Shown here piece after piece: positions 1,403 to 12,656 of a stretch of DNA of 32,000 nt. The notes below the pieces were generated by a model. That model had not been told where the DNA came from, did not search any database, and was given only the letters and a program-made list of their open reading frames with translations. This DNA is from Dubosiella newyorkensis (GTDB lineage Bacteria > Bacillota_I > Bacilli_A > Erysipelotrichales > Erysipelotrichaceae), in NCBI RefSeq assembly GCF_001945605.1, contig NZ_MPKA01000064.1:1-32000 (forward strand). Direction: 5' to 3'. The position numbers were made by a program, and so were the translations under genes. The stretch's first letter is position 1, and each line of letters opens with the position of its first letter.

Positions 1403-1843
1403 TTAAAATTCGTCCTTATCAAAGGAAGTTTGATAAGGATTATTTTCCCAAGCACTTATCTCAATTAAGTTATTTTCAAGATCCGTAATTACGCATGTCC
1501 GTTGTCCCCAGAATTCAGTTGTTGGTGGGTAAACAGCATTTGCCCCTTTAGCAACAACTTCTTCATAAGCCTTATCAACTTCTTTAAAACTATTTACAGA
1601 TAAAGATATTTCGAAATGGCCATTAATACCGCAACAGTAATTATATTCATGACATGTTAAAAACTCGAAGCTTTCTCTTTTATAGAGCATAAAAAGAGTG
1701 TGATCTTTTACTAAATAAACAAATCCTGTGTCTTCGCCCTCAGTAATCTCAAAACCTAGGACATCCCTATAGAAGCGAACCATTTTTGGCATATTTTCTA
1801 CCATTAATTGGATTCCATCTAATCTCATCTCTATTAAACTCAT
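1403..1843 (-). CDS. VOC (glyoxalase/bleomycin-resistance/dioxygenase) superfamily protein
   Basis: The 146-aa product has an N-terminus typical of VOC-fold proteins (LDGIQLMVENMPKMVRFYRDVLGFEI) and the tail FWGQRTCVITDLENNLIEI. It is the first gene of the low-GC island. Confidence 0.7.
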   Translation of the reverse strand: MSLIEMRLDGIQLMVENMPKMVRFYRDVLGFEITEGEDTGFVYLVKDHTLFMLYKRESFEFLTCHEYNYCCGINGHFEISLSVNSFKEVDKAYEEVVAKGANAVYPPTTEFWGQRTCVITDLENNLIEISAWENNPYQTSFDKDEF

Positions 1844-1864: not shown

Positions 1865-2065
1865 TTATTCCTGGTACGAAAGGCAGCCTTGTCTTTCTCC
1901 GGGATAATAGTAGGACCCATAATGGCTAAAATACTGTCGTCCATTACTATCTTTATCATATGGATTCCAGTAAATGCAGCCATCACTACAGTTATGCCCA
2001 CATAATGGCATAATGGGGATAGAAATTCTGACTTCTTTTCTATCCTCGTTTTTAATTTTTTTCAT
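1865..2065 (-). CDS. small Cys/Tyr-rich hypothetical protein (66 aa from the RBS-supported start)
   Basis: The internal ATG at 2065 is preceded by GAAGGAGAAAATT, whereas the track start at 2086 has no RBS. The product reads MKKIKNEDRK...PLCGHNCSDGCIYWNPYDKDSNGRQYFSHYGSYYYPGERQGC. I do not recognise the family. Confidence 0.45.
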   Translation of the reverse strand: MKKIKNEDRKEVRISIPIMPLCGHNCSDGCIYWNPYDKDSNGRQYFSHYGSYYYPGERQGCLSYQE

Positions 2066-2143
2066 AATTTTCTCCTTCGATTTCATATTTCAATTCAACT
2101 ATCTTTTCGAACGATATAATTTATAAAAATAGATATTTTAAGT

Positions 2144-2347
2144 TTACTGTTCTATCAATTGATTTAACGGAAGATAAGCATAATATCCGTCCTCGGTTTT
2201 TAATAAAACTAAATCTGTATTTTCTTTATCCCAGAACCATAAAAATGAAGTCGGTATTGAACCTCGATCAGGTTTAGTTCCAAAGCAACCGTTCTTATAC
2301 CCTACAAACTTGGTTCCTGCTGGAAAATCTGCAATTTTTGAAGGCAT
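2144..2347 (-). CDS. hypothetical ORF, probably the C-terminal part of a longer frame that continues in-frame from the upstream membrane ORF across a single TAA
   Basis: The ATG at 2347 has no RBS. The same frame is open from 2473 down to 2144 and is in phase with ORF 2474..2974. See the finding covering 2144-2974. Confidence 0.35.
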   Translation of the reverse strand: MPSKIADFPAGTKFVGYKNGCFGTKPDRGSIPTSFLWFWDKENTDLVLLKTEDGYYAYLPLNQLIEQ

Positions 2348-2473
2348 ATAATAACATTTAAGAGTTGTTCCGTGGAAAATAGACGTTTCTTTAATTTCAT
2401 TTGCTAAATATCCTGGAATCTCTGATGTTGAAACATATTCTTTTTGATTATCAACAATAAATGATTCTGAAAT

Positions 2474-2974
2474 TTATTGCTGAAAACTCTGCGTTAAAAC
2501 AGTTTTTGTAATAGAGAAACCAAGCAAAAGCACAACAGGTAACAATATTAAAATTAGTAGGTTCCATTTCTTTAGGGAGCTTTTTGCTAAATATACCAAC
2601 CCAATCATCGCAGCAGTAATAATAACCATGGACAGGCATAAAATTGACCAAATCTTTAGTGATCGCAAAGCGAGTCCTGCTTGCGTTATTGAATAAACAG
2701 AAACGGCGGCCACCAAAGTGACTAGAACGCTTACGATTACTTTCACAATAGAACTGATGCCATTTGTATCAATCATCCAAGTTTGATATAAAAATGTTAT
2801 TAAACAAGCTATACTTCCAAAAATCCATAAACATAACCACAAAAAAAATGCGAAATTTTGAAAATCCTCAATAAAACCTATGAGTAATATTAGCGGAATT
2901 CCGATTATGATTAAGAGAGGGGCTTCAAATATTACGAATAAATGTGTTTCTCTGTTATTCATATTTTCTTTCAA
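2474..2974 (-). CDS. polytopic membrane protein (about 5 TM segments), translationally coupled to idi
   Basis: The 166-aa product consists almost entirely of hydrophobic helices. Its start overlaps the idi stop as ATGA (2971-2974). Confidence 0.6.
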   Translation of the reverse strand: MKENMNNRETHLFVIFEAPLLIIIGIPLILLIGFIEDFQNFAFFLWLCLWIFGSIACLITFLYQTWMIDTNGISSIVKVIVSVLVTLVAAVSVYSITQAGLALRSLKIWSILCLSMVIITAAMIGLVYLAKSSLKKWNLLILILLPVVLLLGFSITKTVLTQSFQQ

Positions 2975-3561
2975 TCCATCAATAAATTTGGCGATTGAGT
3001 ATTAAACATTGATTGCTCAACGCATGAAAAGACTTTTTCAAACCAAGCAGTAAATTGCTTTGGATGTTCCTCAATAGTTTGAACTAAAACTTTAAATTCA
3101 ATCCATTCGACCTCAGATACTTCAGCCGGGTTGGGAATCACTTCTAAATTAGTACTATCTACAGGAAGTACAAAAACATAGTCGATTTCATTTTCAGATA
3201 AGTTTCTAAAATCGTGTTGATACCGGATTGTTCCTACTTGCTTGATATGATTAGTAATAAATACACTTGTTTCCAACCAACTCTTATCAAGAAATCTTAT
3301 GCCTAATTCTTCTCTTAACCTTTTAATAATTGTATCGATTAGATTTGTATTTGGATCGGGGTGAGAGCAGCAAGAATTTGACCATAATCCACCTGAATGA
3401 TATTTACTGATTTGGCGTTTTTGGAGAAGAACTGTTTGTTTCTCAGAATCAACGATAAAAACTGAGAACGCTCGATGCAATTGATTATTTTTATGGGCTT
3501 GAATCTTTTCTTCACTCCCAATGATTTCATCATTTTCGTTAACAAGAATAACTTGATCCAT
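2971..3561 (-). CDS. idi: isopentenyl-diphosphate delta-isomerase, type 1 (Nudix-fold)
   Basis: The type-1 IDI active-site pattern is present: metal His residues in AHKNNQLHRAFSVF, WSNSCCSHP (catalytic Cys plus His, compare E. coli WTNSVCGHP), REELGI, and SENEIDYVFV (compare ENEVCPVF, catalytic Glu). Length is 196 aa. Confidence 0.85.
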   Translation of the reverse strand: MDQVILVNENDEIIGSEEKIQAHKNNQLHRAFSVFIVDSEKQTVLLQKRQISKYHSGGLWSNSCCSHPDPNTNLIDTIIKRLREELGIRFLDKSWLETSVFITNHIKQVGTIRYQHDFRNLSENEIDYVFVLPVDSTNLEVIPNPAEVSEVEWIEFKVLVQTIEEHPKQFTAWFEKVFSCVEQSMFNTQSPNLLMD

Positions 3562-3565
3562 ATAA

Positions 3566-4138
3566 TTACCCGAGAAAGTCCGATAAATCTTTTATGAAGC
3601 CTACGTTTAGTCCTTTAACTTGTTGCGACATATTATAGACGTTAGTTGCAAGATATCTTGCAAACGTATACTCTTCTATTTCACAGCATAAATTAATCCA
3701 GTTTCTAAACCAAAATTCAAAATTTTTGGGATCCCTAAACCTCTTAAAGAAACTCGGTTTACAGTCTTTAAAATAATCTTCCCATATCTCTAAATCTGTT
3801 CCGAGTATAGCTAATGCAGCATAATATAAGTCTCCTTTAGGAAATTTATACTGGATATTCCCATACACTTCCTTGAAATGTTGGTCTAGTTTTGACTGGT
3901 ATTCAGTTAATCCATTACGAATAAGTTCTAAAGCTACAGCTAGCTCAATAATTGAGCAAACAAATTCTTTTTGCACTCTGTTAAAAATCTCTTCCTCCGT
4001 TTCAGACGGTGTTGACTGTCCGGTTACCATATTTGCCATAACAAGAATATGCCTTTTCATCCGAATACGATCTAACCGACTATATTTCTCTATCATTTGC
4101 TCATTGTTCATTAGTGTTTCAGTAATTCTCCTTTCCAA
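3566..4138 (-). CDS. hypothetical protein with helix-like composition, no recognisable motif; start uncertain (TTG at 4138 or ATG at 4111)
   Basis: The 190-aa ORF is tightly packed between the prenyltransferase-like gene and idi. No DDxxD, P-loop or metal motif was seen. Confidence 0.5.
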   Translation of the reverse strand: MERRITETLMNNEQMIEKYSRLDRIRMKRHILVMANMVTGQSTPSETEEEIFNRVQKEFVCSIIELAVALELIRNGLTEYQSKLDQHFKEVYGNIQYKFPKGDLYYAALAILGTDLEIWEDYFKDCKPSFFKRFRDPKNFEFWFRNWINLCCEIEEYTFARYLATNVYNMSQQVKGLNVGFIKDLSDFLG

Positions 4139-4145
4139 TTACCAT

Positions 4146-5030
4146 TTACGAAATAATATAATATTTATTTATAGTAATATCTTTAAAATCATTATCTAGC
4201 GAAATCCCTATTGCAAATCCATAAAGAATAAGATCCCTATGTTCGTTTTCGAAAACAGCTAATTGCAACAGTTGCTTTTTAAGGCTGGGAAATATATTTT
4301 CCAATTCTTGGGTAAGAAAGCCATTATCCAGAACCTTAAAATATAATTTATATTTTATATTAGTTGAATAATCTATAGCATGAAGCCACAATTGAATTTT
4401 ATTTCTCTCTATTAGAACTTTTAGCGTATCCTTAATACAACAGAAGTCACTACCTATAAGGTTTATCGAAGCAAGTGTTGACTCTATAGTTAATTCATCT
4501 AGCAATTCGTACTTAGCTGGATCGAAATCATCCATTCCTCTACGTAACAACCATTCAAAGTTTAAGATATTTCCATTTTTTCCATTTTTTAAACCTATCA
4601 TGTGCAAAGAGCCATAATGATTTCGAGAAGGATTTAAGGAGAAAGCAGAAGAGATTTCTTTTAATTCATTAGCCATCTCTACATCGAGTGAGAAGTTGGC
4701 GTTTAGTAGCGAAAACAGTTTATTTATATTAGCGTTTGTTCGGTTTTGCAGAGCAAAGTAAATTCGTTGAGCTTGATTAGAATCAACACAGATACAAATA
4801 CAACGAATCATCTTAAATTCTTGTAAAAAAGAATAGAGAAGATATTGCTCTGGGGTAAGGGTTGCTTTATTTATAATATCTTGGAAATTTGAGGGGTCGT
4901 CTAATGGTTTCAGATATGTTTTCACTATAAATGGACAATCTTGCTTTATATTTATCCCAATAAAATCAATTGTTTCTGAGTAATCGACTGATTTAAACGG
5001 ATCAAATAGTGGTACTCTTCTAAATGACAT
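4146..5030 (-). CDS. candidate ABBA-fold (aromatic/peptide) prenyltransferase-like protein
   Basis: The 294-aa product shows ten short alternating-hydrophobic strand-like segments in five pairs separated by helical stretches. The pairs are FIGINIK/FIVKTYLKP, IRCICICVD/RIYFALQ, LHMIGLK/ILNFEWLL, LWLHAIDY/KYKLYFKV and LILYGFAIGISL/ITINKYYI. Size and layout fit a PT barrel, and a dedicated idi lies in the same operon. The start is coupled as GGAGGGATTAAATG to the kinase stop. No HMM or structure check was run. Confidence 0.5.
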   Translation of the reverse strand: MSFRRVPLFDPFKSVDYSETIDFIGINIKQDCPFIVKTYLKPLDDPSNFQDIINKATLTPEQYLLYSFLQEFKMIRCICICVDSNQAQRIYFALQNRTNANINKLFSLLNANFSLDVEMANELKEISSAFSLNPSRNHYGSLHMIGLKNGKNGNILNFEWLLRRGMDDFDPAKYELLDELTIESTLASINLIGSDFCCIKDTLKVLIERNKIQLWLHAIDYSTNIKYKLYFKVLDNGFLTQELENIFPSLKKQLLQLAVFENEHRDLILYGFAIGISLDNDFKDITINKYYIIS

Positions 5031-6059
5031 TTAATCCCTCCAAGCAAAAAATGAATCTACTTGCGTATACCCTTTCGCCAGAAAATCGATCATTAATGAT
5101 TTATCGGAAATATGCAAACCTTCTCTTATCAATCCTGCTATAAATCTCGATAGATAAATCCCGTTTAAACATTTTGATAAGATATTTATGTTTTCTTTTT
5201 CTAAAGTATTTAAACGATAATATTTTGAATATGATGAAATATAGGCGTTCCTGTATTGTTCCGCCATTTCAACAGAGCGTACTTCTCCAATGAAATCCTG
5301 CTGGTATCGTGAGCTATACCAGGTTATAAGAAAGTCAAGTAAGCACGGACATCTACCAGATAAATTAAAGTCTATAATTCTAAATGTACCCATAGAGTCC
5401 ATAAGAACATTACTTGTCAATCCTAAATCTCCATGGACGGCAGAGCAAGGAAGTTTATGAATCACTTCTATTATCGTTTTAATTGACTTTTTATGGACTT
5501 TTCTTAGAGGTTGCCATACTTCATTCGAAGTGTTAATCCCAGACCAGATTTGATCAAATTCAGTTTTTCCGTTATATAAAGCTCTCAGTGCGAAATTCAA
5601 GGGTAGTTTTCTATGAAAAGATTTTCCAAAAGAATGTGACAACCCAATCAATCTTCCAATAGCAGTAATATTTATCAAATTTATACTTTTTATGTCTCTT
5701 CCAACGTATTCTTGTAAAGAGACAAAAGCCCTAGCATTCTCATATAGATGATGTAAATCTGTCTCATAGCAGTATTTACCATCAGAATTAATTAATGGAA
5801 AAAATCTTGCTGTCGGGACTCCCTTACTACGAAGATATTCAGAAAACTCGATTTGGTCTTCATTTTGTTGGCGAGAAAAAGTATGATCACTAATCAATTT
5901 CATAACGAAATGCTCATTATCGATTGTTTCGATGAAATAAACGAATGAAAATTTAGGCGGCTCCCAAAAATCATCTATTACTGAGATTCTTGTGATAATC
6001 TTAATATCAAAATATTCGCTGAATATCTTAGCAACAGGAATTGTCTCTATCACAGACAT
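5031..6059 (-). CDS. APH/choline-kinase-fold phosphotransferase (protein-kinase-like superfamily)
   Basis: The Brenner motif HGDLGLTSNVLMD is followed by FRIIDFNLSG, the metal-binding D of the DFG-equivalent. Length is 342 aa. The 5' end overlaps the rSAM gene by 32 nt. Confidence 0.7.
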   Translation of the reverse strand: MSVIETIPVAKIFSEYFDIKIITRISVIDDFWEPPKFSFVYFIETIDNEHFVMKLISDHTFSRQQNEDQIEFSEYLRSKGVPTARFFPLINSDGKYCYETDLHHLYENARAFVSLQEYVGRDIKSINLINITAIGRLIGLSHSFGKSFHRKLPLNFALRALYNGKTEFDQIWSGINTSNEVWQPLRKVHKKSIKTIIEVIHKLPCSAVHGDLGLTSNVLMDSMGTFRIIDFNLSGRCPCLLDFLITWYSSRYQQDFIGEVRSVEMAEQYRNAYISSYSKYYRLNTLEKENINILSKCLNGIYLSRFIAGLIREGLHISDKSLMIDFLAKGYTQVDSFFAWRD

Positions 6060-7203
6060 GACTGCAAATACCTTTTAAAGGGGAGTCGGTACTCTCGATA
6101 GTCCCAGCGATTTCCTCAATTGCTTTTAGAACAAGTCGATCGTTTTCAGAAAAGACTTTTTTTAATTTAAGCCTATTGAATTGTATTTTTGCCGATGCCA
6201 AAATACATTCCCTATATGATAAGCACAGACCTAGATTAACCAAATGTGTACATCCAGATGTAGCTAGGTTCGCAGTATAACAATTAGGGCATAGGAAAAA
6301 AAATCTGCATCCTACACAAGGATTATTAGACGTCAAATCTAATTTGGAACAATCATAATTCTGAAATTTACTTGACTCATCACCAAGTGAAACTGGGGCG
6401 AATCCCTGACAGGGAAATATATTTCCTTCAGTATCAAAGCATTTTGTTAATTCCCCTGCAGCACAAAACCGATGTTTATTTTTTAAATGCGCAAACCAAA
6501 GACGAAGGTCAAAATTAAGTAAAGTGCAAAGATCTAAACTCGGATTATCAGTATAAAATTTGACAAGCTTTTCGAGTTCCCCGTTTAAAATTTCTCCAAC
6601 CTCTTCAAAGTTCCATTCAATACCAGTTGGAAGAGTAGCATCTGCAACGAATCCTAATTTATGTAAATGGATTACTCCTTCCGCCAAATGTGGAAGAGTG
6701 GCTTTTGAAAGGGTTAATTTAGCCTGACATTTTCCCGGCCATGTCCTTAAAAAGAAGTCCTTATCAATATGTCTGTAGCTTCCATCTCCGGACAATAGCG
6801 GTCTATTTAAGTTATGCATAGCCTCCGTACCATCGAGGCTGAGAGAAACAATATATTTCTCTTTTCTTTCTTGAAGCCATTCCTGAACTGGTCCGTGGAC
6901 TAATGTTCCATTGGTGGTAGTTTCAAAATAGGTATTCCGATCCCCGTAAACATCTTCGATGTAGGAATCGATTTTTTTTAGGAGAGCAAAGTTTGCGAAG
7001 GGCTCTCCACCAAAAACTTCGATCAGTGCTGTCTCGCCAGGAGGTATCTCCCCATAAAAACTGTCAATAATTTCTTTCGCGGTCTCCCAACTCATCTTTT
7101 TTTTATTCTTAAAGTGCTCGTAACAGTAGAGGCAGTTTAGGTTACACTCTTCGGTTAATAAGAGCATGATTTTTTTTTGATCTTTATCCATAATCTTTTC
7201 CAT
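6028..7203 (-). CDS. radical SAM enzyme with a C-terminal SPASM domain (anSME-like peptide-modifying maturase)
   Basis: The CNLNCLYC (CxxxCxxC) motif starts at residue 20, followed by GGEPF. The SPASM region reads FCAAGELTKCFDTEGNIFPC ... CVGCRFFFLCPNCY, and there is an extra Cys-rich tail GICSHVCDRDNSCC. There is no space for an N-terminal RRE/PqqD-like domain. Confidence 0.85.
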   Translation of the reverse strand: MEKIMDKDQKKIMLLLTEECNLNCLYCYEHFKNKKKMSWETAKEIIDSFYGEIPPGETALIEVFGGEPFANFALLKKIDSYIEDVYGDRNTYFETTTNGTLVHGPVQEWLQERKEKYIVSLSLDGTEAMHNLNRPLLSGDGSYRHIDKDFFLRTWPGKCQAKLTLSKATLPHLAEGVIHLHKLGFVADATLPTGIEWNFEEVGEILNGELEKLVKFYTDNPSLDLCTLLNFDLRLWFAHLKNKHRFCAAGELTKCFDTEGNIFPCQGFAPVSLGDESSKFQNYDCSKLDLTSNNPCVGCRFFFLCPNCYTANLATSGCTHLVNLGLCLSYRECILASAKIQFNRLKLKKVFSENDRLVLKAIEEIAGTIESTDSPLKGICSHVCDRDNSCC

Positions 7204-7215
7204 TCTAATAACATA

Positions 7216-7243
7216 AAGTGAAGAGAAATGTTTCTCCTCACTT
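7216..7243 (-). promoter_or_regulatory. intercistronic stem-loop between the precursor ORF and the rSAM gene (attenuator or mRNA-stabilising hairpin)
   Basis: The minus-strand RNA AAGUGAGGAGAAA-CA-UUUCUCUUCACUU forms a stem of about 11-13 bp with one G-U pair, followed by UAUGUUAUU. It lies 9 nt after the peptide stop and 12 nt before the rSAM ATG. Confidence 0.55.
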
Positions 7244-7252
7244 ATTTAGTAA

Positions 7253-7411
7253 TTAATCCCATCCACAGGATTTCTTATGAGCTGTGCAACTGCAGCTATA
7301 AGCAGTAAAACCTGGGTCATACGAATATTCAGTTTTATTCTGCGTTTTTTCTGCTTTCTGAATCATTGATTCAAGAGTTGCATAGTCTTCACTTGAAAAA
7401 TGAAAACTCAT
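7253..7411 (-). CDS. 52-aa candidate RiPP precursor peptide, absent from the supplied ORF track because it is under 60 aa
   Basis: An ATG at 7411 is preceded by AAAGGAGAAGAACAGT, and the stop TAA is at 7253-7255. My translation is MSFHFSSEDYATLESMIQKAEKTQNKTEYSYDPGFTAYSCSCTAHKKSCGWD. It lies immediately upstream of, and co-oriented with, the rSAM/SPASM gene. Confidence 0.7.
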   Translation of the reverse strand: MSFHFSSEDYATLESMIQKAEKTQNKTEYSYDPGFTAYSCSCTAHKKSCGWD

Positions 7412-7605
7412 ACTGTTCTTCTCCTTTCTTGTTTTCTAAGTTTGCAAAAGCAATTAAGCAAAAGTCATTCTATGCTTAACTACTTTGAAGCCCACAAACT
7501 ATTCACTTGCTAAGTAACATTCATGAGCTTTATTCAAAGGAAGAATTTAAATAATCCTCCCTATTGAACGACAACACTATTACCATTTACGGCAGATTTA
7601 TTTAG

Positions 7606-7815
7606 CTATCGAACCAAGCGTATGATTGCGGTCATTAACCACTTAAGGATAATTAGGCAAGTAGCTACATAACCTACTGCAAATCCAATCGCCGATCGAG
7701 CGATAAGTTTTCCGGTTCCCGGACCTTCGAGAGCGGGAATTCTACCCACCATAAACTTATTGCCTACGTAAAAGGCAATAGCAGAATAGACGAGTATTAC
7801 CAAAAGTCCTTCCAT
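7606..7815 (-). CDS. small two-TM membrane protein, hypothetical
   Basis: The 69-aa product has two hydrophobic helices. An RBS (GGAGAAAGAGAA) lies directly upstream of the ATG. Confidence 0.5.
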   Translation of the reverse strand: MEGLLVILVYSAIAFYVGNKFMVGRIPALEGPGTGKLIARSAIGFAVGYVATCLIILKWLMTAIIRLVR

Positions 7816-7862
7816 GATTCTCTTTCTCCTATCCTCTATATCCTCTAGAAAAACGAATTTCG

Positions 7863-8246
7863 CTATTCGATTCCCGTTTGCTCAGTAAACTCTGAGTAGG
7901 GAATAGATTCCTCAGCATCAAATAATTTGTTCGCGAACTCAAATTGCTTTGAAGGGCTGTCAATCAAATCTTCTTCAACATAAAGAAATTCATCGCCCGT
8001 TTTCGTATACACAATCGTTGAATTTCCTAGTCTGCCGTAGTTCACTACGATATTGCTCGGTTGCATAGAAGTATGCATAATTTTTGAAAAAGCAAAGTAA
8101 TCCTCAATGTTATCGACTGGTTTTTCTACAACTAAGTAATCTGTTTCATTTTTGCTGCTTGTTATTGAAACCTCGTCGGTAGTTGAGCAACCGAGAATGC
8201 TCAGGCTCATGCCTATCAGTAGGAGGAGCCGAAGTGTCCTTTTCAT
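7863..8246 (-). CDS. lipoprotein, hypothetical
   Basis: The signal peptide carries a lipobox: MKRTLRLLLLIGMSLSILGC-STT. Confidence 0.65.
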   Translation of the reverse strand: MKRTLRLLLLIGMSLSILGCSTTDEVSITSSKNETDYLVVEKPVDNIEDYFAFSKIMHTSMQPSNIVVNYGRLGNSTIVYTKTGDEFLYVEEDLIDSPSKQFEFANKLFDAEESIPYSEFTEQTGIE

Positions 8247-8261
8247 TTTTTGCTCCTTCTA

Positions 8262-8591
8262 TCACTTGACTAAGTTTCCAAGCTCTTGAATTTTTTTAAT
8301 CAAGCTTTTTTTAGGTATTGAAGCAGTGAAACCAGAGAGTTGCATTTCGCCTGCACCAACATTTCCTATTCCTACCTGCACCCAGCCGTAAATATTGAGT
8401 GCATGATCAACTTGATCAAACGTAAGAAACTGCATGGCAGTTAGCGCACCTGTTCCTTTTTTATAAACGGGGTTCTTATCAAGGGGACTCTCAATTTGTT
8501 TAAATCCATTACTAAGACAAAAATTATTGATGATTTGTGCGATGGTTTCTGGGTCTTTACTGGTAGTGTATGAGAACTTACTTCTAGACAT
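8262..8591 (-). CDS. hypothetical soluble protein (109 aa)
   Basis: The start overlaps the stop of the upstream membrane gene (ATGTCTAG), which indicates translational coupling. I do not recognise the family. Confidence 0.5.
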   Translation of the reverse strand: MSRSKFSYTTSKDPETIAQIINNFCLSNGFKQIESPLDKNPVYKKGTGALTAMQFLTFDQVDHALNIYGWVQVGIGNVGAGEMQLSGFTASIPKKSLIKKIQELGNLVK

Positions 8592-9012
8592 TACTTGCTC
8601 CTTTGGTCATTTTTAGCCCCACTAAGCCTAATATTGCAGTAATAACATCAATATAAATTCCATTTTCAAAGCCTTCGCAGACCCTTAGGAACAGATACTG
8701 TATGTCTGAATCTACATTCCCTCTCATCATAGGTGGAACAATTGCGATGATTAGGAGTTCAACTATTAAACCCACACCAATTCCTGAAAGCTTCCCTGGT
8801 CTATTTCCTTGAGAAATAGCAAAGAGTATATATAGGGCTTGAGCAACAACTATTAAGCCGACGACTGCAAACCAAATCGCATCTCCTGACGACATACCGT
8901 GCCAACCATCTAGGTTTCCTGACACTGAACCAAAATTCATCAGCAGGGAGGCGAGTATAGAACCAGTTAAACCAAGATAACCAATTAAAGCCAATATGTT
9001 TACTTTTTTCAT
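8584..9012 (-). CDS. four-TM membrane protein, hypothetical (start moved to the RBS-supported ATG)
   Basis: The ATG at 9012 is preceded by GGAAGGGAGAAAA and the product begins MKKVNILALIGYLGLTG. The longer track ORF extending to 9093 adds a basic, non-membrane extension without better support. Confidence 0.55.
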   Translation of the reverse strand: MKKVNILALIGYLGLTGSILASLLMNFGSVSGNLDGWHGMSSGDAIWFAVVGLIVVAQALYILFAISQGNRPGKLSGIGVGLIVELLIIAIVPPMMRGNVDSDIQYLFLRVCEGFENGIYIDVITAILGLVGLKMTKGASNV

Positions 9013-9189
9013 TTTTCTCCCTTCCTTTAGAATCCCCGACCATTCCCTCCTTTCTTTAGGTCTTTTTTTGTAGACTATTTTGAACATTACCAATGAACTT
9101 ATTTAAAGTTTGAAATAAACACAATTAAGGGATTAAAACCCGAATTATCAACTTTTTATTGACAAATTGCTGGACTAGTAAGATAATGA

Positions 9190-9244
9190 AAAGCAAAATA
9201 AAAGATTCCCGAAAAGTCTACTTTAAGGGAATCCTTCTTTTTTT
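9190..9244 (-). terminator. bidirectional stem-loop terminator at the 3' end of the recombinase gene
   Basis: GATTCCC (9204-9210) pairs with GGGAATC (9227-9233). T-runs follow on both strands: TTCTTTTTTT on the plus strand and TTTTATTTTGCTTT on the minus strand. Confidence 0.5.
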
Positions 9245-9817
9245 ATACTTATAATAGGTGTTTTTGCTAATGCTAAAGTGTCGGCAAAGATCTTTAACAG
9301 TGACCTCGTGGGATTCACATTTTTTAACCCACTCGTCAAATTCTTGAGGTAGTTCGAGCTCTGGTCTGCCAAATTTTACTCCACGTGCTTTTGCGGCAGC
9401 TATCCCCTCAGCTTGCCGTTTTTTTATTGCTTCTCTTTCCGTCTGGGCAACAAAAGAAAGAATCTGAAGGACAAGGTCAGCAATGAATGTGCCCATCAGA
9501 TTCTTTTCGGTTCTTGTATCGAGTAACGGCATATCAACCACTACCATATCCACGCCATTTTCTTTAGTCAGGACCCGCCATTCCTTTTGGATCTCCTCAT
9601 AGTTCCTGCCAAGCCTATCAATGCTATAGACATAAACCACATCACCTGGCTTCAACTTTTTGATAAGTGCTTGATAGTTTGGGCGATTAAAGTCCTTTCC
9701 TGATTGTTTATCAATAAACAGATGGTCAGACTCAATCCCGAGTTCGCTCAGAGCATTAACTTGTCTTGCTTCGTTTTGATCCATGCTACTAACACGGATA
9801 TAGCCATAAATTGCCAT
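9218..9817 (-). CDS. small serine recombinase (resolvase/invertase family) with a C-terminal HTH
   Basis: MAIYGYIRVSSMDQNEARQ contains the catalytic Ser motif, followed by SIDRLGRN and a C-terminal HTH (VTVKDLCRHFSISKNTYYKY). The start at 9817 has the strong RBS AGAGGAGGAATTT. The upstream 44 codons in the track ORF are unsupported. Confidence 0.85.
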   Translation of the reverse strand: MAIYGYIRVSSMDQNEARQVNALSELGIESDHLFIDKQSGKDFNRPNYQALIKKLKPGDVVYVYSIDRLGRNYEEIQKEWRVLTKENGVDMVVVDMPLLDTRTEKNLMGTFIADLVLQILSFVAQTEREAIKKRQAEGIAAAKARGVKFGRPELELPQEFDEWVKKCESHEVTVKDLCRHFSISKNTYYKYKKRRIPLK

Positions 9818-9992
9818 AAATTCCTCCTCTTTGGTTGTGATTGGTTTTAACTCATTCATCACAACTATTCGAGTAAGAATTCTGCTTTCTGTTAGATAGG
9901 AATCTGAGTGGATTTTCCTAAGAATAAGATCCTTCCAGAAAAGGGTCATGGCCGTATAATAGTCTGACAGATCTTTTGTTTTGGCTTGTTAG

Positions 9993-10307
9993 TCAAATAG
10001 CCATTTTTGCTGCTTTGTTCTGATTGTCCAGAAGTACTAATTTAGTGATTTCATCAGTATTTATAACAGGTTTCAGATATCCGCCCATAATCAAGTCAAT
10101 CACTGGTAGCGGGTTTTCATAATCACCAACCCAGTCCCCGTAGCTAATCTGCCAAAAACCATCTTTACTGTAGCTCATCATCAGTTCGTCATTGAAGTCG
10201 ACAACGACTTCGCCCTCTCTCAGGGTCGGATAGACCTCATCTGGTTCAGTGAGGATCTTTTCTGGGTTCCAGCGCTTTACGCCTTCCAGGATTGTATTTA
10301 GTTCCAT
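9993..10307 (-). CDS. hypothetical small acidic protein (104 aa from ATG 10307)
   Basis: The ORF has an AAAGGAC RBS-like sequence upstream. Its composition is reminiscent of small immunity-type proteins, but I recognise no motif. Confidence 0.45.
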   Translation of the reverse strand: MELNTILEGVKRWNPEKILTEPDEVYPTLREGEVVVDFNDELMMSYSKDGFWQISYGDWVGDYENPLPVIDLIMGGYLKPVINTDEITKLVLLDNQNKAAKMAI

Positions 10308-10383
10308 TGTTTGTCCTTTCTTAGGACCAGTCCGTATCTTGCTTAAGCAATTCAATCATACAGGAATTCAGAAGTTTTACAAG

Positions 10384-10640
10384 AGCAATAATCGACGAAT
10401 GTACTTTACCTAAAGCATATTTCAGTCATTTATTCTTCATAAAAAAGTCACAAATCATTCATCTTAAAGAGAAATACCGGAGAGAAGTGCAAGTCTAAAA
10501 CAGGATCATCTCTTATCCAGAAACCAAATTTCGGAATAGATTAGAAGCCGACCAAACTGGAAGGAAATCGTCCAGCATTGTGAGTTCCATGGAAGTTAGC
10601 ATCTCTCATAAAAATCCGTTTGATGCAAAAAATCTTACTG
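10384..10640 (+). pseudogene. possible decayed AraC-type HTH remnant (multiple stops and frame changes)
   Basis: Frame fragments resemble the two AraC C-terminal HTH signatures: LPKAYFSHLF.IKK (compare s.sYlsrlFKK) and, in another frame, EIVQHCEFHGS*HLS*KSV (compare eIA..vGF.d.sYFsr.FKk). This is a by-eye resemblance only. Confidence 0.25.
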
Positions 10641-10851: not shown

Positions 10852-11994
10852 ATGGAAGATGAGCAAGTCGTCAAGATCCTTTTATGCTGTTCTTCCGGGT
10901 TCACGACTTCCTATTTTGCTCAACGCTTGAATGAAGCCGCAAAGCAGCTAAGCCTAGACTATGAATTCGATGCCACTTCGTATTTTGATCTTTACTCAAG
11001 AGCGGAAGGATATGACATGATCTTGATCGCTCCGCAGATCGGTTACATGCTAAAGAAATTTAAAAAGGCGTTGCCAAAAAAACGGGTGTGTCAGATCCCG
11101 ACTTCTTTGTTCGCCTCGTACAATACGGGGGCCACATTTTCCTTTATCCAAGAGCAGCTCAAGGAATATCGCCAACAAAGTCAAGAAAAGAACTCATTGT
11201 TCAGCGACTGCAGGCTAGATTGTCCTATGCATCAAGAAACGGTGCTTGCGATCGCCGAATTGTATGATGGCAATTCGATCCAAGTCTATATCCATATTTA
11301 TAAAAAGGGCGAAGTCCTTTTTGATGATGTCGTCATCAAACCAAACTTTCAAAAAGTCGTCTTGTTCGATTTGATCCAATACGCTCTTGGGCAAGTCGAG
11401 GGTGTCGATTTGATCGTGTTGGCCGTTCCTGGCATCATCAAAGAAGGGACGATCATCGATTTCCCGCAGCGAGGTCTTAAAAATTATCCGATGAAGAAGC
11501 GGATCGAAGAGCGATTCCATATCAAAACGACTTTGATCAACAACACCAACGCAATCGCGCTCGGTTTTGCCTACCTGCATCCGGAGCATGAGATCGTGAC
11601 CTACCATTCGCAACCATATGGAAGAGCGATGGGCGGTCAAGGAACTGTCGTTCACCAAAATCTGATCAACGGCATAAGCGGGATCAGCGGCGAGATCAAA
11701 TTCTTTTTGCCACGCATGCAGTTTTCAAATGAGCTCGCTCGTCTTGCTAAAACCGATTTTGGGACCCAGGAAATCGTGACCAACGCCTTGCTTCCGACGA
11801 TTTCTTTGATCGGGCCCGATATTATCGTTTTAAGAGCGCCATTGATCAACGACTTAGAGGAATTGAAGAAGCGGATCGCCACCTTTATCCCATGTGACGC
11901 GATGCCTGAAATCGTCATGATCGAGGATATCAAGCCTTTTTTATTCCGCGGGATCGCCGAATACGCGTGCTCCTTTCTTCAAGAAACGGAATGA
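10852..11994 (+). CDS. fusion protein: an N-terminal PTS EIIB domain (lactose/cellobiose family) joined to a C-terminal degenerate ROK-like domain
   Basis: The N-terminus VKILLCCSSGFTTSYFAQRL...DMILIAPQIGYMLKKF matches the cellobiose-type EIIB phospho-Cys loop. The C-terminus carries ROK-like blocks LAVPGIIKEGTIIDFP...LINNTNAIALGFAY and GISGISGEIKFF. However, the N-terminal DxGxT phosphate-1 motif, the ND of NDAN, the GH of AGEIGH and the CxCGxxGC zinc motif are all altered or missing. No clear RBS was seen. Confidence 0.6.
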   Translation: MEDEQVVKILLCCSSGFTTSYFAQRLNEAAKQLSLDYEFDATSYFDLYSRAEGYDMILIAPQIGYMLKKFKKALPKKRVCQIPTSLFASYNTGATFSFIQEQLKEYRQQSQEKNSLFSDCRLDCPMHQETVLAIAELYDGNSIQVYIHIYKKGEVLFDDVVIKPNFQKVVLFDLIQYALGQVEGVDLIVLAVPGIIKEGTIIDFPQRGLKNYPMKKRIEERFHIKTTLINNTNAIALGFAYLHPEHEIVTYHSQPYGRAMGGQGTVVHQNLINGISGISGEIKFFLPRMQFSNELARLAKTDFGTQEIVTNALLPTISLIGPDIIVLRAPLINDLEELKKRIATFIPCDAMPEIVMIEDIKPFLFRGIAEYACSFLQETE

Positions 11995-12656
11995 AGTCTC
12001 GACTTTTTCATCGCTTCATAGCCGATCCAGATCGTCCACATATAGGCGCATGTCTTAGGAATCATAAGCATCCCGATCATTGGGATCTTTTCCGCCCATA
12101 AGACGACCGGAATATAAAATGCGAAACTCAATACAATCGTAAGAGCCATCCATCGAAACGCGCGATCGCGCGTTTCTTTTACTTTCCAAGCGAATAGAAG
12201 GATGATCACCGCTCCCAAAAGCGCAAACGGCACGTTTCGAATGATTCCCCAGGCGATTGGCGGATGGGCGTTGAGCCATTCATTTTGAGGAAACATGCAA
12301 AGAACGATCCGAACTAGCGCCAAGCCATAAACGAGCGCGTTTAGTTTTGGCGTCTTTTTCATTCCATACCGTTTTTTCCAGACTTCAAACAACAAAACAT
12401 AAAAGATCGTCATCGTGATCGATGTGATCCATTTTCCAACACCTAAAGCCGCAGTATAGTTTTCTAGGCCCGTGGTGCATAAGGCGTACGCTCTCGGGAT
12501 CAAATGGAACGCGTCTCCAGCACCCAAAACGATTGCCATCCAGCCAAACAAACGATATTGCGAGCGTGGACGACTTCTTTTGATCATCAAGATCCCGATC
12601 ACCGTCACGAACGCGAGATACAAAATATCAAAACTAGTTTCGAAGACTGCTCTCAT
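11979..12656 (-). CDS. polytopic membrane protein, hypothetical (225 aa)
   Basis: The ATG at 12656 overlaps the upstream stop as ATGA, with an AAAGGAG RBS. The longer track ORF extending to 12785 overlaps the upstream gene and is rejected. Confidence 0.6.
   Translation of the reverse strand: MRAVFETSFDILYLAFVTVIGILMIKRSRPRSQYRLFGWMAIVLGAGDAFHLIPRAYALCTTGLENYTAALGVGKWITSITMTIFYVLLFEVWKKRYGMKKTPKLNALVYGLALVRIVLCMFPQNEWLNAHPPIAWGIIRNVPFALLGAVIILLFAWKVKETRDRAFRWMALTIVLSFAFYIPVVLWAEKIPMIGMLMIPKTCAYMWTIWIGYEAMKKSRLHSVS

Follow-up and report, generated by a model that had tools for sequence, protein, structure and literature searches.

A probable RiPP precursor peptide of gut Firmicutes encoded with a radical-SAM maturase, an APH-fold kinase and a predicted ABBA-fold prenyltransferase

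We analysed the first 32,000 nucleotides of contig NZ_MPKA01000064.1 from Dubosiella newyorkensis (positions 1 to 32,000; hereafter the window) with regard to a 52-codon open reading frame (ORF) on the minus strand, and we are highly confident that it encodes a genuine precursor of a ribosomally made peptide with post-translational modifications (RiPP) belonging to the enzyme cassette downstream of it. As judged from the comparison of homologous loci, the peptide gene is shown to be real, to be selected as a protein and to be obligately linked to the genes of three enzymes: a radical S-adenosylmethionine (radical SAM, rSAM) enzyme with a SPASM extension, an APH-fold kinase and a predicted ABBA-fold prenyltransferase. 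We consider it likely that the peptide is the substrate of these three enzymes, which always follow it, and the precursor of a thioether-bridged, prenylated and probably phosphorylated RiPP; taken by itself, the statement that the product is both thioether-bridged and prenylated has slightly better than even chances. The elements of the cassette are as follows.

7253..7411, minus strand: precursor peptide gene (52 amino acids), recognized from its translation and 27 distinct homologues; first gene of the cassette
7421..7427, minus strand: Shine-Dalgarno sequence AAAGGAG, 9 nt before the ATG at 7411
7216..7243, minus strand: stem-loop of 12 bp with a U-rich run after it, located in the gap from the stop codon of the peptide gene to the start of the rSAM gene; terminator-like
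6028..7203, minus strand: radical SAM/SPASM peptide maturase (Pfam Radical_SAM and Fer4_12)
5031..6059, minus strand: APH-fold kinase of 342 amino acids (Pfam APH, PF01636), present in every complete locus
4146..5030, minus strand: predicted ABBA-fold prenyltransferase of 294 amino acids, assigned from an AlphaFold2 model and Foldseek; no curated model

Translation from 7411 to 7253 gives MSFHFSSEDYATLESMIQKAEKTQNKTEYSYDPGFTAYSCSCTAHKKSCGWD, followed by a stop codon, and the spacer between the Shine-Dalgarno sequence and the ATG (7420..7412) reads AAGAACAGT. An earlier note, made from the letters of the window alone, had described this ORF with its ribosome-binding site, which the sequence confirms. 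Approximately residues 1-28 form a leader and residues 29-52 a core, YSYDPGFTAYSCSCTAHKKSCGWD. The leader is acidic, as the note had stated, with five acidic against three basic residues and a net charge of -2, and the 24 C-terminal residues contain the three Cys, three Tyr and one Trp that it had listed, together with the motifs SCSC and KSCGW. Its description of the ORF as unannotated holds for an ORF track with a cutoff of 60 amino acids, but not for the public databases, where the identical peptide is present as WP_158023798.1 (“MULTISPECIES: hypothetical protein [Erysipelotrichaceae]”) and where the flanking proteins are listed from D. newyorkensis and Ileibacterium valens. The peptide has no match to any Pfam or NCBIfam model. 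A scan for sigma-70 promoters yielded no convincing site directly upstream of the gene, and an Rfam search of the window gave no matches, so that no known riboswitch or leader RNA precedes the peptide.

The stem-loop that follows the peptide gene (7243..7216) has a calculated folding energy of -15.1 kcal/mol and a z-score of -4.18, and none of 200 shuffled sequences folds equally well. In all nine loci examined, a strong hairpin separates the peptide gene from the rSAM gene, and the hairpin sequences are unrelated. Hairpins after the precursor gene are familiar in bacteriocin and RiPP operons and are thought to raise the level of precursor message over that of the enzymes. The element in the window may act as a leaky terminator or as an mRNA stabiliser that sets the stoichiometry of peptide to enzymes.

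A protein search with the peptide found nine homologues, and context look-ups together with pattern scans brought the total to 27 distinct peptides at approximately 40 loci, which originate from Dubosiella/Ileibacterium, Agathobacter rectalis, a Thomasclavelia metagenome-assembled genome (MAG) and gut metagenomes. For A. rectalis, the exact peptide is present on approximately 390 contigs. In all complete loci among those examined the gene order is peptide, rSAM enzyme, APH kinase and a protein of approximately 290-320 amino acids, with the peptide gene always the first of the cassette. A GGAGG-type Shine-Dalgarno sequence is located 6-10 nt upstream of all 20 full-length homologous genes in the fetched loci, and the length of 52-53 amino acids, the stop position and the synteny are conserved. 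A peptide-pattern scan of species-representative genomes returned a single locus, that of the Thomasclavelia MAG, and the cassette therefore appears to be accessory and strain-variable. The scan of viral contigs gave zero cassettes and hence no evidence for carriage by phages.

Selection acts very differently on the two parts of the peptide. The C-terminal 15 residues (YSCSCTAHKKSCGWD) hardly vary in the 20 peptides of the subfamily designated type A below, while the leader varies and retains a pattern of the form L-x-L...E...L...E. Between the window and A. rectalis, 15 of the 24 core codons differ, 13 of them synonymously and two non-synonymously; 19 of the 24 adjacent leader codons differ, with two synonymous and 17 non-synonymous changes. 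Fourteen other lineage pairs give a similar pattern, and the core DNA differs between lineages at 7-22 of its 72 nucleotides. Conservation of the DNA without that of the ORF, which the earlier note had named as an observation that would speak against a peptide, is thus not what is seen: the ORF is conserved and its core changes are mostly synonymous. Mean identities within type A are 89% for the core, 71% for the rSAM enzyme, 45% for the leader, 41% for the APH kinase and 36% for the prenyltransferase. Adjoining co-oriented modifying enzymes with conserved synteny, and conservation divided between leader and core, are generic features of RiPP precursors, and both are present here. The proposal of a RiPP-precursor architecture beside an rSAM gene is well supported by the synteny, by the purifying selection on the core and by the attenuator-like hairpin ahead of the enzyme genes.

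The homologues fall into two subfamilies. Type A (20 peptides) ends in ...Y..DPGF..YsCSCTAHKKSCGWD and type B (seven peptides) in ...SCKCSGPAQSC.WH. The residues Glu-21, Tyr-29, Cys-40, Cys-42, Ser-48, Cys-49 and Trp-51 are invariant in both, Ser-39 and Pro-33 are nearly so, and position 43 holds either Thr or Ser throughout. Both types also share the fixed spacing C-x-C-x6-C-x-W-x-stop. Lys-46, Lys-47 and Trp-51 are found in all 20 type-A peptides, whereas type B has Ala-46 and Gln-47, and the C-terminal residue 52 changes from Asp in type A to His in type B. The type-B subfamily retains the same trio of rSAM enzyme, kinase and prenyltransferase, with rSAM enzymes approximately 50% identical to those of type A. 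The type-B clusters are much larger (L018 2606-11839, L020 1673-10941, L021, L044 and L050), and their additional genes encode a geranylgeranyl-reductase-like flavoprotein, an rSAM/SPASM enzyme that is extended at its N-terminus, a further rSAM enzyme, a B12-binding rSAM enzyme and an isopentenyl-diphosphate isomerase (IDI). The flavoprotein has its best match in the geranylgeranyl-reductase family at 126 bits, below the cutoff of 159, and a weak match to QhpG.

The mechanically called rSAM ORF (391 amino acids) probably starts 12 bases too early, as the homologues and the 387-residue RefSeq form begin with MDKDQKK at 7191. Its CX3CX2C motif occupies residues 20-27 (Cys-20, Cys-24 and Cys-27), with no N-terminal extension before it. 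Altogether 13 Cys residues are invariant, namely those of this motif and ten more, including C296-x2-C299-x5-C305-x2-C308, an arrangement typical of the SPASM extension. The best NCBIfam match is the PapB ranthipeptide maturase, at 144.3 bits over the full length and with a cutoff of 340, followed by the CXXX-repeat, nif11, CcpM, QhpD and SCIFF maturases; the type-B enzyme ranks these families identically. Matches to the QhpD maturase family have E-values of 6e-26 to 2e-32, and no NCBIfam rSAM family listed has a cutoff that the enzyme reaches. Among solved structures, 5wgg (E-value 9e-15), which we take to be CteB, is nearest in sequence. A streptide-type (KxxxW/StrB) maturase model is not among the best 25 NCBIfam matches. 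With 60-65% identity to the other type-A enzymes, the rSAM enzyme of the window is, on the basis of these comparisons, a member of a separate subfamily within the thioether-forming branch and outside every curated family. The Cys-thioether chemistry listed as one option in the earlier note fits such a PapB/CteB-like enzyme. The type-A enzymes also carry an additional C-terminal tail of approximately 25 residues (SPL.G...HVC....RC) with two to four Cys, and type-B enzymes are without it.

The third enzyme could be recognized by its fold only. The 294-residue protein has no sequence match in Pfam, NCBIfam or the PDB, and a profile of its family searched against the PDB gave spurious Nip7/L10 matches only. 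It is outside the curated prenyltransferase families (Pfam Trp_DMAT, PTase_Orf2 and the cyanobactin prenyltransferases), with sub-threshold Trp_DMAT matches in three of its 29 relatives, and the family is rare, with 32 representatives among 1.84 billion clustered proteins. An AlphaFold2 model built from a 16-sequence alignment (mean predicted local distance difference test score, pLDDT, of 78; predicted template modelling score, pTM, of 0.80) consists of five beta-beta-alpha-alpha units; an earlier model from six sequences was too weak (pLDDT 60, Foldseek E-value of approximately 0.1). When the better model was compared with the PDB by Foldseek, all 50 of the top 50 matches were ABBA aromatic prenyltransferases, among them AtaPT, AmbP3, EpzP, FamD1, NphB/Orf2, PirF, DMATS1, CdpNPT and NotF (E-values 5e-7 to 2e-4, probability 1.00). 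The invariant residues K37-x-Y39, R89, K226-Y-K228-x-Y230 and N288-x-Y290 are placed by the model on predicted strands. The ABBA fold is an antiparallel barrel with ten strands, composed of five alpha-beta-beta-alpha units. Basic and Tyr residues form its diphosphate pocket, and these motifs are candidates for that role. From the model we are confident that the protein has the ABBA prenyltransferase fold, in a family that is seen by fold alone.

Members of the prenyltransferase family also occur without rSAM enzyme, kinase or peptide (P0035, of 615 amino acids; L016 7001-7894, with 10910-12646; and L017). One of these, P0035, has a Peptidase_U32 domain as its fusion partner, and near another there are genes for a U32 protein and a glyoxalase. 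We dropped a reading of P0035 as a kinase-prenyltransferase fusion; as its fusion partner is Peptidase_U32, it is uninformative on the coupling of kinase and prenyltransferase. Since P0035 and L016 are found outside RiPP contexts, the family is not restricted to RiPP clusters.

The APH-fold kinase, on which the earlier note was silent although it is part of the invariant cassette, overlaps the rSAM gene with its start by 32 nt and abuts the next gene with its stop codon. The Pfam APH model is matched by eight of nine family members (best E-value 3.5e-18). The motifs HGD...N and IDF are invariant in the family, and the beta-3 Lys is replaced by Arg in type B. A family profile matches homoserine kinase II, amicoumacin kinase and YihE in the PDB. 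We also considered a prenol or isopentenyl-phosphate kinase that feeds the prenyltransferase; we rank this idea low, as it calls for two phosphorylations while only one kinase is linked.

The cassette of the window includes one further gene that bears on prenylation:

2971..3561, minus strand: type-1 isopentenyl-diphosphate isomerase (NUDIX fold), which passes NCBIfam equivalog cutoffs

The scores are 136.5 bits for PRK03759 (cutoff 127) and 112.6 bits for TIGR02150 (cutoff 105.8). A linked IDI gene is present in the window, L008/9, L018, L020, L023 and L024, with a near-cutoff copy in L007, which makes seven locus types, and the equivalog cutoffs are passed in the window and in three further loci. 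The isomerase would supply dimethylallyl diphosphate. The recurrence of IDI, together with the geranylgeranyl-reductase-like gene of the type-B clusters, provides contextual support for prenyl transfer to the peptide, and the option of prenylation raised by the earlier note agrees with both the ABBA fold and the recurrent isomerase.

The enzymes being assigned by family and fold, we infer all chemical steps with their acceptor sites, the succession of events, the removal of the leader and export. We propose that the peptide gene is translated from its strong Shine-Dalgarno sequence and that the hairpin after its stop codon lets the peptide message exceed that of the enzymes. The variable and probably helical leader would dock the peptide on the enzyme set. 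The PapB/CteB-like rSAM enzyme would then form one or more thioethers from the Cys sulfurs of Cys-40, Cys-42 or Cys-49 to carbon. In ranthipeptides, an acceptor (Asp, Glu, Thr or Asn) follows the donor Cys at a distance of a few residues, and the thioether of the product joins the sulfur to a carbon other than the alpha carbon. The peptide contains C49-x2-D52, C40-x2-T43 and C42-x2-H45, and only the relation of Cys-49 to the C-terminus is common to both subfamilies. PapB accepts CX0-6D motifs, for which a thiol and a carboxylate are sufficient (PMC9413430), and can take the C-terminal residue as an acceptor (PMC12373016). We favour a bridge from Cys-49 to residue 52 as the candidate, because the C-x-W-x-COOH register is fixed in both subfamilies even though residue 52 changes from Asp to His, and because the demands of PapB are limited to a thiol with a carboxylate close by, and the C-terminal residue can be its acceptor. 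The ABBA prenyltransferase would add a C5 (dimethylallyl) group supplied through the linked isomerase, with the indole of Trp-51 as the most likely acceptor and the phenol of Tyr-29 or a Cys thiol as other candidates. The kinase might phosphorylate a conserved hydroxyl (Ser-48, Ser-39 or Thr/Ser-43), and the phosphate could be retained, serve as a leaving group or act as a protective group.

The presence of the kinase allows a different route, in which it phosphorylates Ser-39, Ser-41, Thr-43 and Ser-48, elimination follows, and Cys residues add to form lanthionine-type rings in the manner of class V lanthipeptides or thioamitides, with the rSAM enzyme and the prenyltransferase as tailoring enzymes. 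APH-type kinases have a dehydration role in the class V lanthipeptide and thioviridamide pathways, every cassette contains such a kinase with intact catalytic motifs, and the conserved hydroxyls of Ser-39, Thr/Ser-43 and Ser-48 are close to Cys residues. Scans with Pfam and NCBIfam, however, revealed no HopA1-like lyase or other elimination enzyme among the proteins of any cassette, a cyclase is absent, and it is the rSAM enzyme, not the kinase, that co-varies tightly with the core. A 190-residue protein encoded in the window (described below) could be a lyase, but it is missing from all other loci. We therefore regard this route as improbable.

To a second route we give equally little weight. 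Here the peptide would serve as a scaffold that is sacrificed to yield a small cofactor-like or signalling molecule, comparable to pyrroloquinoline quinone, mycofactocin or the thioether/quinone peptide QhpC. Only the C-terminal C-x-W-x of the peptide, or the Trp, would be modified and prenylated, and then be excised or used inside the cell. Precursors of the PqqA/MftA type are similarly invariant and have a C-terminal motif, and the core described here is highly invariant across genera with its motif fixed at the extreme C-terminus. The absence of an exporter and a protease from the conserved cassette, the matches of the rSAM enzyme to the QhpD family and the weak match of the type-B flavoprotein to QhpG agree with this idea, and the three additional rSAM enzymes of the type-B clusters, including the B12-dependent one, suggest heavy remodelling. 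On the other hand, the cassette has no linked dehydrogenase or cofactor-using enzyme as a partner, and the conservation in type A extends over approximately 24 residues and thus beyond the terminus alone. The location on low-GC mobile islands with integrases or resolvases, together with the strain variability, fits accessory natural-product genes better than it does cofactor pathways.

Less probable still is a streptide-like carbon-carbon bond between Lys-47 and Trp-51. The earlier note had recognized that the spacing in K47-S-C-G-W51 equals that of the streptide motif, K-x3-W, and this part of its proposal stands: the spacing is present, the lysines and the Trp are invariant throughout type A, and Lys-Trp bond formation is within the repertoire of radical-SAM/SPASM enzymes. 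The link itself is unsupported, because type B has lost both lysines (Ala-Gln) and keeps Tyr-29, Cys-40, Cys-42, Ser-48, Cys-49, Trp-51 and their spacing; moreover, the best matches of the rSAM enzyme are thioether-forming maturases. A frame open by chance, or DNA whose conservation has a cause other than coding, might be suspected for a short frame in AT-rich DNA that matches no Pfam or NCBIfam model, but is excluded, as far as sequence evidence goes, by the mostly synonymous core substitutions, the synteny and the conserved Shine-Dalgarno sequences.

Several points weigh against the thioether-bridged, prenylated product that we prefer to these alternatives. Its chemistry is proposed from sequence, synteny and fold. 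With 144 bits against a PapB cutoff of 340, the rSAM enzyme belongs to a different subfamily, which could form C-C or C-O bonds or perform epimerisation. As some members of the prenyltransferase family lie outside RiPP contexts, prenylation of the peptide is suggested by the genomic context and not by the fold, and the cassettes of A. rectalis and Thomasclavelia have no linked IDI gene. The kinase has no partner lyase in the cassette, we know of no precedent for an APH kinase in rSAM RiPPs, and it could act on the peptide, on the finished product (for self-resistance) or on a small molecule. Pfam and NCBIfam scans identified no protease, transporter or recognisable RRE (leader-binding) domain in the conserved cassette. 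Finally, antimicrobial RiPPs do not usually have a core that is invariant between genera.

Compared with known systems, the proposed pathway is most like that of ranthipeptides with cyanobactin-style prenylation added. With the systems of PapB (freyrasin) and CteB (thermocellin/SCIFF) the cassette shares the arrangement of a small precursor that contains Cys and, directly after it, a radical-SAM/SPASM maturase. Among curated families PapB scores best, and Cys-49 and the carboxylate of Asp-52 are three residues apart, inside the CX0-6D range of PapB (PMC9413430, PMC12373016). In contrast to those systems, the score is far below the PapB cutoff, and the peptide has three Cys only and no CX3D repeats. 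To our knowledge, ranthipeptide clusters with an obligate kinase and prenyltransferase have not been described. The cyanobactin F-family (PagF, KgpF, LimF and PirF) and other ABBA prenyltransferases share the barrel, the size of approximately 290 amino acids and the occurrence in RiPP clusters with Trp/Tyr cores; the enzyme described here, however, is not a member by sequence, comes from anaerobic gut Firmicutes, not from cyanobacteria, and is combined with an rSAM enzyme and a kinase. The cassette has no cyanobactin protease or macrocyclase, and some relatives of its prenyltransferase are found in non-RiPP contexts.

ComX of the Bacillus ComQXPA system is also a short ribosomal peptide, and like ComX the peptide has a conserved Trp near its C-terminus that could be prenylated; by this analogy, a lipidated peptide signal is a possible function of the product. 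ComQ is similar to trans-isoprenyl-diphosphate synthases and is not an ABBA barrel (PMC13290415). No polyprenyl-synthase-like gene, histidine (receptor) kinase or regulator is linked in the cassette, which, unlike the ComX system, includes an rSAM enzyme and a kinase. Streptide (StrA/StrB/StrC) likewise combines a short precursor with a radical-SAM/SPASM enzyme in a commensal Firmicute and has the K-x3-W spacing, but the lysines are lost in type B, the rSAM enzyme is nearer to the thioether families and the accessory enzymes are others. With class V lanthipeptides and thioamitides the cassette shares an APH-fold kinase gene next to a Ser/Thr/Cys-rich core; it differs from them in that no lyase was found and that the neighbouring 294-residue protein has a predicted prenyltransferase fold and is not HopA1-like. 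A purely formal similarity exists to the eukaryotic CaaX motif, as an invariant Cys lies four residues from the C-terminus (C-x-W-x-COOH) of a peptide linked to a prenyltransferase. The CaaX transferases are zinc-dependent alpha-alpha-barrel heterodimers with C15/C20 donors, whereas here an ABBA barrel is linked to IDI (C5). By analogy, S-prenylation would be one option among several.

In the literature searchable as full text, a search that included the core string and for which subscription-only papers were outside the scope, we found no description of the peptide family or of the cassette. The combination of an rSAM enzyme, an APH-type kinase and ABBA prenylation on one ribosomal peptide was likewise not found in the curated families and the searchable literature, and a 2026 review of peptide prenylation lists the cyanobactin F-family and ComQ-like enzymes and nothing of the cassette's kind (PMC13290415). 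What is new within RiPPs is thus the enzyme combination and the prenyltransferase family; the peptide itself was already known as a RefSeq hypothetical protein.

Our broadest proposal is tentative, and we give it less than even chances: the peptides would define a new RiPP class in abundant gut Firmicutes (A. rectalis, Dubosiella, Ileibacterium and Thomasclavelia), in which a PapB-like thioether synthase, a peptide kinase and the first peptide-modifying representatives of a hitherto unrecognised ABBA prenyltransferase family act on the near-invariant core to produce a bridged, prenylated and perhaps phosphorylated lipopeptide with a shared target. The near-invariant core across producers suggests a conserved biological target, and with the cassette on mobile islands we hypothesize that the product acts on a target shared between genera. 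If so, it could serve as a signal between species or as an effector directed at host or competitors, and would be no bacteriocin specific to a strain. Among commensals the producers are prominent, with A. rectalis in humans and Dubosiella and Ileibacterium in mice. Independently of this proposal, a “hypothetical protein” becomes part of a defined four-gene system (the peptide and three enzymes) that can be expressed heterologously, and a prenyltransferase family invisible to sequence models is of interest for biocatalysis of peptide lipidation.

The remaining genes of the operon and its surroundings that deserve mention are the following.

3566..4138, minus strand: protein of unknown function, 190 amino acids, hypothetical in RefSeq; only in the Dubosiella/Ileibacterium version of the cassette
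2474..2974, minus strand: polytopic membrane protein, 166 amino acids, overlapping the end of idi; weak sub-cutoff match to 5TM-5TMR_LYT
7606..7815, minus strand: two-helix membrane protein, 69 amino acids, encoded upstream of the peptide; uncertain member of the system
9218..9949, minus strand: serine recombinase within the low-GC island

The 190-residue protein has no Pfam, NCBIfam or PDB match and no counterpart in the other loci; a protein of 183 amino acids at the analogous position of L021 was considered as a relative and found to be unrelated. No copy of the 166-residue membrane protein was found in the other loci, and it may function in export or immunity. A homologue of the 69-residue protein (36% identity) occupies the same position in L008 (7591-7803) and L010 (3521-3733) and is absent from the A. 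rectalis loci; this protein, which directly precedes the peptide in two distant versions of the cassette, may be an immunity or export helper.

The cassette is located in a low-GC island from approximately 2000 to 10500, with 31-39% G+C compared to 42-48% in the flanks, which also holds several small unknown or membrane proteins. Integrases flank the cassette in L007, L008/L010 and L001-4, and the island is probably mobile. Downstream of the cassette (1403-1843, minus strand) lies a gene for a protein of the glyoxalase/bleomycin-resistance fold, and a glyoxalase-fold gene also follows the prenyltransferase-only loci L016 and L017; this may be a coincidence, or the neighbour may serve in resistance or binding. 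An ORF of 380 amino acids at the island's edge (10852-11994, plus strand) fuses a phosphotransferase-system IIB domain to a ROK-family domain, which is unusual.

A second radical-SAM RiPP-like cluster was observed just upstream of the cassette copy on an A. rectalis contig (L001, 5490-9836). It encodes twin peptides of 40 amino acids ending in ...ETASTCICRVSDG and ...EMASSCLCRVSDG, a protein of 273 amino acids, an rSAM enzyme of 439 amino acids and a methyltransferase. The S-C-x-C near the acidic C-terminus of the twin peptides echoes the SCSC/SCKC of the peptide studied here. Between the twin peptides and the rSAM gene lies a 70-residue repeat ORF (6003-6215) rich in Gly, Tyr and Trp, with the repeat GAYR.(F/W)GEDFID..GNW.R, which could be another modified-peptide substrate.

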